Shown here: one piece after another, positions 7,629 through 58,369 of the stretch
Numbering within the stretch: position 1 is the stretch's first letter
How the letters are laid out: every line of letters starts with the position of its first letter
Source of the DNA: Candidatus Latescibacterota bacterium
GTDB taxonomy: Bacteria > Latescibacterota > UBA2968 > GCA-2709665
Direction: 5' to 3'
Assembly: GCA_963667175.2 (NCBI GenBank)
Contig: CAXXXF010000012.1
Coordinates: forward strand, 1 to 64,000
Length of the DNA stretch: 64,000 nucleotides
Made by a program: the position numbers and the translations under genes
The notes under the pieces: model-generated
What the model was told of the DNA's origin: nothing
Database searches by the model: none
Seen by the model: the letters and a program-made list of their open reading frames with translations, nothing else

Positions 7629-7972
7629 TTCACAAAGACTGAACAGACATGGATGGACGGGATGAACAGGATAAAATCCGATCAGGATTTACTGGATTTG
7701 CAGGATTAAGCAGGATTTGAAACCAGGAGCGAGGCAAAGGCGCGAGAAAACGAACATCAGAAACTACGAAACACGCAAAAAAAACGAAAAATACATGGCT
7801 GAATTCTAATGCCGGAAGAGGCACAATAACAGCGATCCTGTTACATGGCGTATCGCCGAAAGACGATGAATGTCCCGCAGGGTCACGGCGTTACGACACA
7901 CGCCGTTTGACGCCGATTGCCTTTGTGCCTTTTTGTGCTTTTTGTGGCGAATTTGACGGTTATCTTCTTATC
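7620..7972. repeat. Modular dispersed repeat, family R1 copy a
   Basis: CATGGATGGACGGGATGAACAGGATAAAA (7648-7676), AAAGGCGCGAGAAAACGA and CCTTTGTGCCTTTTTGTGCTTTTTGTGGC modules shared with 48548-48761 and 57255-57430. Confidence 0.85.
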
Positions 7973-11321: not shown

Positions 11322-11348
11322 TAACATGGATGGACTGGATCAAAAACC
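11322..11348. repeat. Truncated R1 core, copy b
   Basis: TAACATGGATGGACTGGATCAAAAACC. Confidence 0.6.
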
Positions 11349-32410: not shown

Positions 32411-32561
32411 ATTACCAAGAGCAGTAAATATTGGACAGTGGCCAGTGGTCAGGAAGAGCAGTCGCTCACTTCCATTTATTCTCAGGATTGGCAAATATTC
32501 GACACCGAGACCCCACGAAAGAAGAGTGGGAGGATAGTAACTATAGGGTGCTCCCCGTAAT
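32411..32561. mobile_element. MITE family R3, copy 1 (~150 bp)
   Basis: Imperfect TIR ATTACCAAGAGCA...TGCTCCCCGTAAT; colinear with 51161-51311. Confidence 0.8.
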
Positions 32562-32598
32562 ATGTCTCGATACCAAAGTACATCCGATCACGTCGCGT

Positions 32599-48547: not shown

Positions 48548-48761
48548 GCCCCATTAATTCATAAAATGAAACTTACATGGATGGACGGGATGTACAGGAT
48601 GAAAACCAAAAAGCACGACAAAGGCACGAGAAAACGAGGAACGGCAATGACGGGAATACATGCCTTTGGACGACCTCAACACGCCGTTTCGCAGCCATGC
48701 CCTTTGTGTCTTTTGTGCTTTTTGTGGCTGATTTTTCGGTTGTCTATTTTCGATTTGAGGC
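48548..48761. repeat. Modular repeat, R1/R2 hybrid, copy c
   Basis: ACTTACATGGATGGACGGGATGTACAGGATGAAAA at the left; right end TTTTCGATTTGAGG|CTAA is the reverse complement of the R2 left end. Confidence 0.85.
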
Positions 48762-51109: not shown

Positions 51110-51161
51110 TTGTCCACCAATGGCAATGACACGCGAAATCTGCCTCGTATCTCATCAAATA

Positions 51162-51310
51162 TTACCAGGAGCAGTAAATAGTGGACAGTGGACAGTGGTC
51201 AGGAAGAGCAGTTGTCAGCTTCCACTTATTTTCAGGAGCAGCAAATAGTCGACATCCGGATCCAACCAAAGAAGAGTGGGAGGATGTAAACAATACGGTG
51301 CTCCCCGTAA
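51162..51310. mobile_element. MITE family R3, copy 2, TA-flanked
   Basis: TA|TTACCAGGAGCA...TGCTCCCCGTAA|TA; a homologous empty site lies at about 55080-55090. Confidence 0.82.
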
Positions 51311-51350
51311 TAACCGGGTTACGGCGACGTAGGTTACCCTGAAACCAAAA

Positions 51351-55033: not shown

Positions 55034-55438
55034 ATGTCCACACCTGGCAATCACACGTTAAATTCGCCTCGTAACTCATCCAATATCCGGATTTCAGTGA
55101 CGTAGATTCCTGAGATTTGAAAAGAAGAAATCATAAACATTCACACCTGTCCAAAATCGGTTTCTGTCTTGGACAGCATCTGGTTCACTTCCGAGAAGCA
55201 ATGCCTCGACCGAGGTCGCCTGAGATTCACAAAGTGCTTATTTCACGGGCTTTTTGAGACGGGAACCGCACATTTATGGCCGTTGGAAAAGTCACTTTGT
55301 TCTTGGACAGTATTGCGCAGACAATGGCAACCTGGTTTTCAAAATCCGGGTCAAACCCGTCCAAAAACGCCTATTGAAGCCACTTTTCGAACCTTATTTC
55401 TGAGAATTCCACGGTTCTTGGACAGCAGTGATAAACAT

Positions 55439-55539: not shown

Positions 55540-56118
55540 TCACCCCGTCCAGCACCCGGATTCCAGCCTCGGCCATTCGGGGGGTATTTTCTCGATTGCG
55601 TAGGCCCAGGCGACCTGCCAGGTCCGGTTCACGAGAACCGGCACGAGCACGCGGCGGTACAGACTTCGACCGCCGGGGCGGAAGCCTTCCAGGCGGTCGA
55701 TGGCGGGCAATCGGGTCTCGGGATCGTTAAAAACGAGCAATTCCCCATGCACAACGCCCTCGCCGGTCTCTTTCGGACAGGGCGGACGCGCGGCCGGCTG
55801 CTGAGCGGCCATAAGACGAGTGAAGCGTTCCTGCGTGGCCGCATCGGCCGAGGGATCGGCGGTTCCGATGGCGAGGATATCCCGGTCCGGTACCTTGAGA
55901 AAGGGGATCCGATCGGGCCGGGTGTAAACGCATCCCCGCACGACCGCCGGCTCAATCGCCGGCACGCCGCGACAGTAACCGTCGTGGTTCGAGTGACCGC
56001 GCTTCAGGGTGCCGTAGACGAAGAGGGCGATCGTGAGACTGGATTGGTGCCCCGCTGGCTGAACGCCGGAAGGCGTCCCGCGATTCGACTCACCGCGCGT
56101 GTCAGCGCTTCGTGCCAC
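55540..56118 (-). CDS. Gamma-glutamylcyclotransferase (AIG2-like)
   Basis: LFVYGTLKRG, VHGEL, IDRLEG, YRR, AWAY; start uncertain. Confidence 0.88.
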   Translation of the reverse strand: MARSADTRGESNRGTPSGVQPAGHQSSLTIALFVYGTLKRGHSNHDGYCRGVPAIEPAVVRGCVYTRPDRIPFLKVPDRDILAIGTADPSADAATQERFTRLMAAQQPAARPPCPKETGEGVVHGELLVFNDPETRLPAIDRLEGFRPGGRSLYRRVLVPVLVNRTWQVAWAYAIEKIPPEWPRLESGCWTG

Positions 56119-56267
56119 AGGCTCACCCCATTCCGTGCTTTGCTTTCCGATTCGCGATCGATATGTTATCCGGGCGGGTGTCCGGTCTTATACGGGAGAC
56201 GGCGCGGTCCAGGGCGGAAGGATTCATCGACCTATTCCTGGAACGGAGCATCCCTTCTTCAAGATAG

Positions 56268-56297
56268 TTTTTATCCTGTCTATCCTGTCCATCCATG
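56268..56297. repeat. R1 core, copy d (5' exon of the intron; continues at 57060-57085)
   Basis: TTTTATCCTGTCTATCCTGTCCATCCATG|intron|TAAGTTT...TGAATTA. Confidence 0.88.
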
Positions 56298-57059
56298 GTG
56301 CGCCGTGAAAGGCGCGGAACTCCAGTGGGTGAGAGTCCCACCCGACAAATGTTGCTACAGTCGGTAGCAACCGGAGCGGGGGTGAAGGTAACGACATCTC
56401 CGAAGCCTCCGGTGTAAAGGGTCGCAAGGCGACTCGGCGAGTATGCGGGCCGAAACGTGCAGTGAACGCTGAGCAGGCCTCGAAAAAGGTAATGCGGGAG
56501 CCGACCCGCCCATGGATCGGGGAAGGCCGCCGTCGTTGGAAAAAGAGAGCAACGCGTGCATCCAACGGTCCCGCCGGGGTAATGGCGAAGGCACGTATAC
56601 AAGGGGTTCCGACGCAACACGGGAAGCCCCAGCGGTGGTGAATAGACACCAACCGGACGCCCGTGAGGGACAGGCCGGGCCGTATGGGGTGGCGGACAGG
56701 CTCGTAGTACCCGTGAAGCCGGGTAACGCCGGTGGAGGGAAGGGGCCTGACTTCGGATGTGCTTGCGAAGGGGACAACTGTCGGGAGAGTGGCGCAAGCC
56801 TATTACCTCCTCTAAAAGTAGATGAGGCGACTCCGGAACAAGCTTGGGCTTCAGGTGAAGCTGTCCGGGCAGTGCGGGCAGCGTGTGCCTGAAGGCGACG
56901 TCCGTCGGAGAGCCGGATGCGGGAAACCCGCACGTCCGGTTCGACGAGCGGGATGTGGAAACGGAGCACGGAGCGGCTATTGAGGCACCGCCAGACGAAA
57001 GGGGCGGAAACAGATAAGAAGGGCCACTCCTAAACCACCGCGCCACATCCCGACTCTAC
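56298..57059 (+). ncRNA. ORF-less group II intron (762 nt)
   Basis: 5' GTGCG; domain V GAGCCGGATGCGGGAAACCCGCACGTCCGGTTC (56910-56943); long domain VI GAGCGGGATGTGG...CCACATCCCGACTC; 3' end CTCTAC; no RT ORF. Confidence 0.93.
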
Positions 57060-57254
57060 TAAGTTTGGGTCTTTGAATTATAGCTCGAATTATCCATGAA
57101 AACAGGTGGATTTGTTATATAACCGGTTGATTTTCAATAACATCAGCGGAAAATGTAACGAAATCCATTAAGAATCCGGAGTCGGGCTGGCCGGCAAACG
57201 CTGGGGTTTCGTGGTGGGCGGAGTGATGACCCACGTTCTATGGCGAATCGATTC

Positions 57255-57430
57255 CCTGACGTTCCTCGTTTTCTCGCGCCTTTGTCGTGCTTTTCGGTTT
57301 TTTCTCGTGCATTTTTCGCGCTTTTTCGCGTGTTTCGTAGTTTCTGAAGTTCGTTTTTTCGTGCCTTTTGGTTTTTATCCTGTCCATCCTGTCTATCCAT
57401 GTGAGTTTTGTTTTGTGAATTATTGGGGAT
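57255..57430. repeat. Modular repeat R1, copy e (unoccupied intron target)
   Basis: TTTTTATCCTGTCCATCCTGTCTATCCATGTGAGTTT plus TTTTCTCGCGCCTTTGTCGTGC modules. Confidence 0.85.
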
Positions 57431-57451
57431 AGAGGTCCGGGTGAGTCTTCC

Positions 57452-58369
57452 ATGAACCCGATGTTTCTCAAATGGACCGGTTGCGGCGGTTTCGAGGTCC
57501 GTACGGACACGATCAACTTCGCCTTCGATCCCTATCTGTTCGGAGAACATCTGTCTGACGCGTCGCCCGACTTCGACTATATCTTCATCAGCCACGAACA
57601 CTTCGATCACTGCCATCCCGCCACCCTGCGCCGGCTCTGCCGCGGTGGGCGATTCAAGAAAATCTTCGTCAGCCCGGGGTGCTGCGACCCCGACCGGCCC
57701 GTGGACGAGAAGTACCGCGACGCCGCGTTCGACCGGGACCTGCCCATTACCAAAACCCTGGACCCCGACGTCGTGCAGGTTGTCTTTCCGCGGCGCCTGA
57801 GCCACGTCGGCGGGGAGTCCCGCGTCTTTCCGGGCCCTTTCGAACTGGACCTCGGGCCCATTCACGTGGACATCATCGAAAGCGGGGAAAACCAGAGGCC
57901 GGACCTGCCCAACTGCGGATACCTCGTCACCGTCCGGGACCTCGGCGTCTCGTTTCTGCACACGGGTGACCTCACCGAACCCTACCGCGCGCTCGAAAAG
58001 CTGCGCGGAAGGGTCACCTACCTCATTCACATGAAGTTGGGCCTCACGGAGTGGGGCGGCGAGGACCGCACGGACAAGCTCCTCCGATGCATCGACGCCG
58101 TCGAGCCGGAGTTCCTGATCCCCATCCACTACCGCACCGACCGCGCGTCGGACCCGATCCCGCACGGGACCTGGCCGCCCGACGTCACGGACGTGGGCGC
58201 GTTCATCGAATGGATTCGGGAGGCCGTCGGAAAGAGAACCCGCGTGCTGCCCTTCACGGCGGGGGTGGAATACGAAGTGGAACTTCCGTCGAAGCGGGTA
58301 CTCTGGAAATGGAACTGGCGCAACACGTGGACCGAGCCGTCCTGGCGGGACGACCGATCGAACGAATAG
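57452..58369 (+). CDS. MBL-fold metallo-hydrolase
   Basis: DPY, ISHEHFDH, HTGD, IPIHY. Confidence 0.9.
   Translation: MNPMFLKWTGCGGFEVRTDTINFAFDPYLFGEHLSDASPDFDYIFISHEHFDHCHPATLRRLCRGGRFKKIFVSPGCCDPDRPVDEKYRDAAFDRDLPITKTLDPDVVQVVFPRRLSHVGGESRVFPGPFELDLGPIHVDIIESGENQRPDLPNCGYLVTVRDLGVSFLHTGDLTEPYRALEKLRGRVTYLIHMKLGLTEWGGEDRTDKLLRCIDAVEPEFLIPIHYRTDRASDPIPHGTWPPDVTDVGAFIEWIREAVGKRTRVLPFTAGVEYEVELPSKRVLWKWNWRNTWTEPSWRDDRSNE

Follow-up and report, generated by a model that had tools for sequence, protein, structure and literature searches.

Genomic context and identity of the element

The stretch analyzed here, hereafter the window, comprises 64,000 nucleotides (nt) of contig CAXXXF010000012.1 (contig C12) from a Candidatus Latescibacterota bacterium, whose 5.52-Mb genome (G000) is assembled in 18 contigs. 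It carries on its plus strand a 762-nt group II intron devoid of open reading frame (ORF), copy A1, whose anatomy, target sites, relatives and probable mode of spread are the subject of this work. The intron lies in a divergent intergenic spacer, since the gene on its left, of the GGACT family (55540-56118), is on the minus strand and the gene on its right, of the metallo-beta-lactamase fold (57452-58369), is on the plus strand. A scan of positions 55900-57600 for promoters and terminators returned one promoter-like site, on the wrong strand and not above shuffled sequences, and was uninformative.

The splice boundaries of A1 read ...GTCCATCCATG↓GTGCGCC...CGACTCTAC↓TAAGTTT (arrows mark exon-intron borders or insertion points) or, in extended form, ...TTTTTATCCTGTCTATCCTGTCCATCCATG↓GTGCGCCGTG...CCCGACTCTAC↓TAAGTTTGGG. 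The intron starts with GUGCG (56298-56302) and ends with CUAC (57056-57059), which satisfies the group II end consensus GUGYG/AY, and the same ends are found in all 26 copies of the genome. A previous reading of the window from its letters (the sequence-only reading) had proposed an ORF-less group II intron of 762 nt at this place and had named the Rfam intron model as a check. Both Rfam models used gave matches above their cut-offs: RF02003 (group-II-D1D4-4, cut-off 49 bits) at 56323-56460 with 102.3 bits over its whole length (model positions 1-138 of 138), and RF00029 (Intron_gpII, domains V and VI, cut-off 40 bits) at 56908-57059 with 45.4 bits. The architecture of domains I to IV was judged by the RF02003 match and not by a hand-built six-domain model. 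At the 3' end, the fold of 56908-57059 reached -68.9 kcal/mol (z = -5.67), with a bulged A57053 located 7 nt from the 3' splice site, while the fold of the ORF-less domain IV was not distinctive (z = -1.28). The element at 56298-57059 is an ORF-less group II intron with an architecture like that of IIB introns; it is non-autonomous, as its domain IV (about 159 nt) holds no reverse transcriptase (RT) ORF. Besides, domain VI shows an unusual distal extension of about 85 nt past its normal basal stem, which is present in all 26 copies, the RT-encoding ones included.

Copy census and RT-encoding relatives

A BLAST search of the genome with the window intron gave 39 pieces, corresponding to 26 full and two truncated copies. 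The RF00029 model found exactly these 26 copies, which therefore form a single intron family. Sixteen of them are ORF-less: group A (three identical copies of 762 nt, namely A1 and those at C18:38034-38795 and C18:278383-279144), group B (five copies of 758 nt, identical to each other and 98% identical to A), group C (seven copies of 761 nt, 91% identical to A) and X1, a single copy of 1059 nt, which is a C copy with an inserted 284-nt repeat. The ten others encode an RT and fall into R1 (four copies of 1978-1979 nt) and R2 (six copies of 1976 nt).

The RT ORF is open in all ten. Its product of 441 amino acids (aa) displays RVT_1 and GIIM domains with a YADD motif and scores 360 bits on the RT profile TIGR04416 (cut-off 300 bits). 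As its domain content is limited to RVT_1 and GIIM, this RT/maturase is without DNA-binding/endonuclease extension. The best solved relative is the GsI-IIC RT (9.5e-54), and the closest plasmid-borne RTs, 57-62% identical, belong to Planctomyces sp. SH-PL62, Frigoriglobus, Buttiauxella, Bradyrhizobium and Paraburkholderia. The family is not class C by its behavior, with a 7-nt exon-binding site 1 (EBS1) and no terminator-type target; PMC3552965 and PMC4424553, consulted for class assignment, supplied no usable diagnostic. The search for a related RT-encoding intron, suggested with the sequence-only reading, thus yielded ten intact copies, and the four R1 copies share the EBS1 of the window intron.

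Exon-binding sites and target recognition

The sequence-only reading had assigned the role of EBS1 to CATGGAT (56511-56517), enclosed in CCCG-N9-CGGG and perfectly complementary to the end of the 5' exon (56291-56297). This hairpin and its complementarity were recovered as described. A minimum-free-energy fold of the whole intron was tried and dropped, as it gave no usable group II structure and paired GCGGG with CCCGC instead of forming the EBS1 hairpin. Covariation was therefore used, on 16 lineages with a structure made of seven exon/loop pairs and four closing-stem pairs. The covariation score was 0.643 against 0.173 +/- 0.033 in shuffles, none of the 500 shuffles reaching the observed value, and it fell to 0.07-0.14 when the partner was slid. 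In the same structure, overall pairing amounted to 86.9% vs 26-54% with the partner slid. Two-sided changes were observed at all seven exon/loop pairs, with 81% of those cells paired, which confirms CAUGGAU as the exon-binding loop. The closing stem shows one compensatory change, from G-C to A-U, in the Buttiauxella and Xenorhabdus homologues.

The 9-nt loop varies from lineage to lineage, and its versions go with matching 5' exons. In A, B and R1, the loop CAUGGAU pairs with the exon ATCCATG, in the C lineage UGUCAGC pairs with GCTGACA, and in R2 UGAAUUU forms 5-6 pairs with (A/T)TATTCA. Four sister species (G002, G006, G007 and G009) supplied further ORF-less copies, in which UUGCGAA pairs with TTCGCAA (G002), UUUCGAA with TTCGAAA (G006), UGACGAU with TTCGTCA (G009, 6/7 pairs) and UGAUAGC with GCTATCT (G007, 6/7 pairs); a second G007 loop, GGUUAGC, matches its exons poorly. 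Within G000, EBS1 and the intron-binding site (IBS1) form 7/7 pairs in 18 of the 20 A, B, C, X1 and R1 copies when G-U wobbles are included, and 15 of the 20 are entirely Watson-Crick; B3 and B4 stand at 6/7. Plasmid-borne homologues with 70-74% RNA identity also fit the scheme, the Planctomyces sp. SH-PL62 copy with 7/7 pairs.

For EBS3, 43 copies were compared. In 42 of them, the base N of GGGGUA[N]UGGCG and base +1 of the 3' exon form a pair, B3 being the sole miss, and the pairings seen are A:T, U:A, G:T/C and C:G. Such an EBS3-IBS3 contact is typical of IIB introns. In 11 of 16 lineages, a candidate EBS2 loop about 25 nt upstream of EBS1 pairs 4/4 with exon bases between -15 and -10, with a register varying by +/-1; the mean of 5000 permutations was 2.9 and none reached 11. 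EBS1 and EBS3 are shown by these pairings, EBS2 being a candidate only.

Host repeats and homing sites

Twelve copies (A, B and R1), referred to as lineage 1, share the EBS1 of the window intron. Nine of them are inserted at ...ATCC(T)GT(C)C-ATCCATG↓T(A/G/T)AGTT, which is the 3' "tail" of an interspersed element of about 340 nt that resembles MITEs (miniature inverted-repeat transposable elements). The genome contains around 20 whole copies of this element, the tail alone being commoner. It has imperfect inverted ends (AATTATTCATGAAAACCGG / CCGTTTCATGAATTAATGGGG) and no conserved ORF. Its left inverted end (ATTATTCA↓TGAAAACCGG) is itself the site of four of the six R2 copies. The C lineage is found, in 8 of 8 copies including one in a partial copy of the repeat, at GCTGACA↓ACTG in a MITE of about 160 nt (ends TATTACGGGGAGCA / TGCTCCTGGTAATA), for which genome BLAST counted 8 occupied and 13 empty copies, two of the empty ones being in the window. 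Three target specificities thus correspond to three repeated sites, two in the 340-nt element and one in the 160-nt MITE, and 21 of the 26 intron copies are located in repeats.

The number of potential sites was then estimated for lineage 1. Among 699 ATCCATG words in the genome (13 in the window), 66 are in tail context; this search, which had been proposed together with the sequence-only reading, divides them into 9 occupied and 57 empty sites, 51 of the empty ones having T at +1. That reading had also reported the uninterrupted junction as a reverse complement in the window. Indeed, ATCCATGTAAGTTT is present at 48569-48582 (minus strand) with a one-mismatch copy at 57395-57408 (plus strand), i.e., two matches vs 0.11 expected, and the four empty ATCCATG copies that it listed (7648, 11325, 48576 and 57395-57401) are all in repeat context (Table 1). 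Its statement that A1 splits a multicopy repeat stands for the 5' exon and needs correction as to extent: the repeat accounts for no more than about 30 nt on the upstream side of the intron (56266-56297), so the host is a solo tail module and not a whole element, and the complete element lies downstream, at 57085-57430. The left inverted end of that downstream copy (57085-57110) also holds ATCCATG, followed by A.

The term "MITE-like" is kept for the 340-nt element because the search for an autonomous partner was crude: a scan with the left-end core gave 26 sites, none of them paired in inverted orientation 0.7-3 kb apart. We also asked whether genes of one family might start within the tail on the opposite strand (ATG GAT GGA CAG...), and rejected this, since the ORFs from that ATG at the 66 sites range from 2 to 285 aa with no conserved frame; a single site is an exception, its frame running without a stop through all of the 900 nt read.

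Other repeats were encountered along the way. A third family, of 284 nt with about 20 copies at 90-99% identity, has a window copy at 55147-55429, just upstream of the GGACT gene, and is also the repeat found inside domain IV of X1 (G000:C13:174668-174965), where it is flanked by a 14-nt direct duplication. At G000:C6:489421-492703, the ORF-less copy C2 and the RT-encoding copy R2d are 547 nt apart on the same strand, C2 being hosted by only a partial copy of its MITE. In G002, eight near-identical ORF-less copies (L052-L059) are inserted about 16 nt inside another repeat (TAACCTTGATTCGCAA↓TTCTTCGGGGAAG...), and a motif resembling this target (AACCTTGATTCGTCC) is present within the 340-nt element of G000. 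Finally, a palindromic mini-insert of 27-34 nt (CCTGCCTG...CAGGCAGG) occurs in three different intron loops of G009 (L042, L045, L046, L047) as well as inside G000 repeat copies (in the 5' exon of B2; contig C2, about 290430-290460), and may be a very small mobile hairpin.

Table 1. Intron A1, its parts and the unoccupied target sites of the window (DIV, domain IV).
Feature	Position	Strand	Basis or remark
5' exon (TTTTTATCCTGTCTATCCTGTCCATCCATG), tail of the interspersed repeat as a solo module	56266-56297	+	about 27-30 genome BLAST matches
Possible weak IBS2, CCT	56284-56286	+	candidate
IBS1, ATCCATG	56291-56297	+	7/7 pairs with EBS1
ORF-less group II intron, copy A1	56298-57059	+	Rfam, BLAST
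Candidate EBS2, AGGU in loop GAAAA-AGGU-AAUG	56487-56490	+	permutation test
EBS1 closing stem, CCCG/CGGG	56505-56508 and 56518-56521	+	around N9 loop
EBS1, CAUGGAU, final 7 nt of 9-nt loop	56511-56517	+	pairing, covariation
EBS3, A in GGGGUA[A]UGGCG (A1 position 285)	56582	+	pairs with T57060
Domain IV without ORF, about 159 nt	56749-56907	+	replaces 1380-nt ORF-bearing DIV of RT-encoding relatives
Domain V, GAGCCGGAUGCGG GAAA CCCGCACGUCCGGUUC, AGC triad and 2-nt bulge	56910-56942	+	RF00029 alignment, fold
Domain VI, 13-bp basal stem, bulged A57053	56946-57056	+	fold
3' exon, continuation of old spacer (TAAGTTTGGGTCTTTGAATTATAG); IBS3 = T57060	57060-57084	+	aligns with empty orthologous spacers of G009 and G012
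Complete unoccupied 340-nt MITE-like copy, ATAG on both sides	57085-57430	+	absent at orthologous locus of 9 relatives
Empty R2-type site in left inverted repeat, TTATCCA↓TGAAAAC	57096↓57097	+	inside 57085-57430 copy
Empty lineage-1 site	57395-57401↓57402	+	inside 57085-57430 copy
Empty lineage-1 site, exact ATCCATG↓TAAGTTT junction	48569-48582	-	ATCCATG at 48576-48582
Empty lineage-1 site, repeat context (...ATCCCGTCCATCCATG↓TCTG)	7648-7654	-	
Empty lineage-1 site, degenerate repeat context (...GATCCAGTCCATCCATG↓TTAA)	11325-11331	-	
Empty 160-nt MITE copy, C-lineage homing site GCTGACA↓ACTG	51159-51312	-	
Second, more diverged empty 160-nt MITE copy	32411-32562	-	

Insertion history and gene disruption

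Within each group the introns are identical or at most 4 nt apart, with no difference among the A copies, among the B copies and among R1a, R1b and R1d. Their 100-nt 5' flanks differ at 39-51 positions for A, B and most R1 pairs, and at 3-16 positions for C. Three copies, A2, B3 and B4, are outside any repeat and have only (A/G)TCCATG, 6-7 nt, in common with the usual site, which excludes homologous recombination. The expectation from the sequence-only reading that copies of this EBS1 are confined to the repeat holds for nine of the twelve, these three lying in unrelated DNA, where the 6-7 nt of IBS1 are nevertheless kept.

The pair of genes around A1 (GGACT and metallo-beta-lactamase fold) is syntenic and intron-free in all nine same-genus genomes examined. 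In two of them, G009 and G012, the orthologous spacer contains the empty site ATCCATG↓TAAGTT, as ...TTTTTATCCTGTCCATCCTGTCCATCCATG↓TAAGTTCC; hence, the insertion at the window locus was base-precise, without target duplication, and is species-specific. Identical introns in diverged flanks, together with the empty orthologous sites of two sister species, show that the copies arose by precise independent insertion and not by riding on the repeat.

The target set had also been called gene-sparing. This is correct as a tendency, with the large majority of copies in repeats, and incorrect as a rule. A2 (locus G000:C18:36534-40295), identical to A1, is inserted antisense within a long gene whose halves carry SIR2_2 and DUF4020, and probably knocks out this defense-type SIR2 gene. 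B3 is likewise antisense, in an ORF that extends over at least 665 aa, and R2b is inserted in sense, after 43 codons of a frame that is free of stops for at least 543 aa.

The ORF-less lineage across the genus

The intron family was matched in 13 of the 14 same-genus genomes searched and in 16 of the 21 same-family ones, against two weak matches in 19 genomes of the neighboring family. All the ORF-less copies examined in five species have one domain IV in common, 88-99% identical, and a blastn-short comparison of this domain with R1 and R2 gave only chance 8-10-mers and no ORF remnant. Domains I-III show another kinship: A and B are closest to R1 (95%), and the ORF-less copies of G006 and G002 are closest to R2 (92-94%). 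Such a mosaic suggests recombination or template switching between co-resident introns. At least seven EBS1 variants occur among these copies. As the C lineage has no RT-encoding partner of the same EBS1 in its own genome, re-targeting occurred within the ORF-less lineage.

The single contig of G009, 99% complete, harbors six ORF-less copies, of which three differ from one another by 0-2 nt. Searches of this genome with the RT protein and with TIGR04416 revealed no group II RT, and the sole RT detected is a Drt8-like defense RT (PADLOC, 530 bits). A tentative interpretation, which we consider possible though on balance doubtful, is that the ORF-less form did not arise recently by deletion but is an old, genus-wide non-autonomous ribozyme lineage, a parasite of parasites that swaps its ribozyme body with whichever RT-encoding intron shares the genome, keeps its domain IV, repeatedly retunes EBS1 and EBS3 to other positions in various MITE-like repeats, and persists or perhaps even moves without a group II RT.

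Proposed mechanism and alternative explanations

The best explanation of these observations, with a probability of roughly 0.8, is that A1 is an ORF-less intron mobilized in trans and homing into the tail of a MITE-like repeat. The sequence-only reading had likewise seen a non-autonomous ribozyme retroelement using such a repeat as homing sites, which the census, the EBS1 covariation and the empty orthologous sites support. According to this mechanism, the RNA would be transcribed together with the flanking repeat tail and then spliced, probably with the help of the RT/maturase of related full-length introns, R1 or R2; of these, R1 would be the likelier helper, as it agrees with the window intron in both EBS1 and EBS3. 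The ribonucleoprotein would reverse-splice into DNA matching EBS1 (ATCCATG), EBS3 (T at +1) and, weakly, EBS2. Complementary DNA synthesis would presumably be primed from replication-fork ends, as for RmInt1 of Sinorhizobium meliloti, a route proposed because the RT is without endonuclease domain. As the preferred target coincides with the 3' tail of a multicopy MITE-like repeat, dozens of mostly intergenic homing sites would be available. Splicing, the use of an RT in trans and the priming route are inferred from comparison with known introns.

Several observations weigh against this explanation. Sponge, coral and marine metagenome contigs (word share at most 0.27) contained neither an exon-exon joint nor a contig spanning the window junctions, and are therefore uninformative on splicing, expression and habitat; they do carry related introns, including the RT-encoding form in one RNA library. 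The ORF-less domain IV has no similarity to that of R1 or R2, and no conserved maturase-binding site could be demonstrated in it. The 57 matching sites that are empty imply that homing is inefficient, constrained (e.g., by the strand relative to replication) or recent. Six ORF-less copies coexist with no group II RT found in G009, so that an RT partner on the same chromosome is not always present. Lastly, the candidate EBS2 of the window intron pairs only 3/4 with its own exon.

Some of these points would also suit stranded relics, i.e., ORF-less copies that are immobile, unspliced, decaying leftovers of a past burst, tolerated in non-coding repeats. The lack of splicing or expression support in metagenome contigs, the empty sites, the unrecognizable maturase-binding DIVa, the persistence of ORF-less copies in G009, X1 with a MITE inside its domain IV and the two truncated copies could all be read in this way. 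We nevertheless consider it improbable, since the three A copies, and likewise the five B copies, show no difference among themselves over 758-762 nt at loci that are unrelated, some of which disrupt genes and should not last long, the catalytic landmarks are intact without exception, ten intact RT genes are co-resident, four of them in introns with the same EBS1, and the window insertion is species-specific.

Alternatively, the intron could have entered a repeat once and then spread passively by MITE-like transposition or gene conversion of its host. The 21 copies in repeats would fit such hitch-hiking, as would the host of the C lineage, a small MITE that has clear inverted ends and shows 84-97% identity between its copies. 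However, introns at most 4 nt apart are carried by host repeats that are far more diverged (by 3-16% for C, by 35-45% for A, B and R1), occupied and empty repeats coexist (8 vs 13 for the C-type MITE, 9 vs 57 for the tail), A2, B3 and B4 are outside repeats with 6-7 nt in common, and the tail predates the intron at the window locus, where it is empty in G009 and G012. Passive spread is largely refuted by these data and appears very improbable.

The slimmest chance is left to a self-sufficient ribozyme that splices or moves without cognate group II RT, via an unrelated cellular RT or a DNA-level route: it would account for the three G009 copies 0-2 nt apart at unrelated sites of a genome where only a Drt8-type RT was found, and for a domain IV unrelated to the ORF yet 88-99% conserved across species, but cognate RTs are abundant in the window's own genome, the G009 record may lack plasmids or have lost its RT intron recently, and the reviews consulted make no mention of retromobility in the absence of an intron-type RT, one of them (PMC4424553) stating that bacterial ORF-less introns "nearly always" co-reside with related intron-encoded proteins.

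Comparison with known systems

Trans-mobilization of an ORF-less intron into other mobile DNA has its closest precedent in the TeI3/TeI4 introns of Thermosynechococcus elongatus, where an ORF-less lineage of single origin outnumbers the RT-encoding copies, groups differ in their EBS, "driver" RTs act in trans, and insertion is preferred at a conserved site of the IS200-family element ISEL1 and in other introns (Mohr, Ghanem and Lambowitz 2010, PMC2882425). As in that system, one family has here grown to dozens of copies with more ORF-less than ORF-containing members, all ORF-less copies have one form of domain IV, implying a single origin, and the EBS-distinct groups have well-matched IBS sites, insert mostly outside genes and use other mobile elements as hosts. 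In T. elongatus, the ORF-less copies are mobilized in trans by driver RTs, whereas here this would be the likely route by analogy. The two systems also differ in that our RT is without DNA-binding/endonuclease region, while the T. elongatus RT is CL-type with endonuclease; the hosts are MITE-like non-coding repeats rather than insertion sequences (IS) or introns; domain IV has no detectable ORF remnant, whereas T. elongatus keeps N- and C-terminal remnants; and the ORF-less lineage is found in several species of a genus.

In S. meliloti, the homing target of RmInt1 is ISRm2011-2 and those of RmInt2 are the two inverted repeats of ISRm17, RmInt1 following a replication-fork primer route with an endonuclease-less RT (PMC5894124). 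The present family is similar in having an RT/maturase without endonuclease domain, a target read by RNA pairing over about 20 nt of the 5' exon and a few nt of the 3' exon, and occasional ectopic sites that share the IBS (oxi1). Unlike it, RmInt1 and RmInt2 carry an RT gene of their own and are hosted by autonomous IS elements, whereas the element described here is ORF-less and its host repeats contain no transposase gene; RmInt1 is of class D, and no class placement is claimed for our family.

Zimmerly and Semper (2015, PMC4424553) describe ORF-less introns as rare in bacteria and as sharing their genome, nearly always, with related introns that encode an RT. The rarity contrasts with the 16 ORF-less copies out of 26 reported here, to which four further species are added. 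As for earlier ORF-less bacterial introns, related RT-encoding introns are present in the genome and their protein may act in trans. In Pseudomonas putida KT2440, two of nine intron copies are found in association with REP (repetitive extragenic palindromic) sequences (PMC1525189, table), and a group I intron carrying a MITE has been described (PMC4853749). No report of a group II intron homing into a MITE was found in the literature covered, which did not extend to supplementary site lists. The concept is therefore already described for T. elongatus and for RmInt1/RmInt2; what is new here is the use of small non-coding host repeats, with three target positions in two repeat families, a genus-wide lineage and one RT-free relative.

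Significance

Target choice and target change in group II introns can be followed in this family, a clean natural data set with 26 copies of three specificities, at least four more specificities among ORF-less copies of sister species, all four EBS3 letter combinations and empty sites at orthologous places in sister species. Beyond IS elements and introns, small non-coding repeats now join the mobile DNA in which such introns find a safe haven. The safe-haven strategy leaks, since A2 interrupts a defense-type SIR2 gene. Engineered targetrons combine a short ORF-less ribozyme with a separately supplied endonuclease-less RT, and the family could have a practical use given its targetron-like arrangement. 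Finally, the RT-free genome G009 provides a test case for the persistence or movement of ORF-less introns without cognate maturase.

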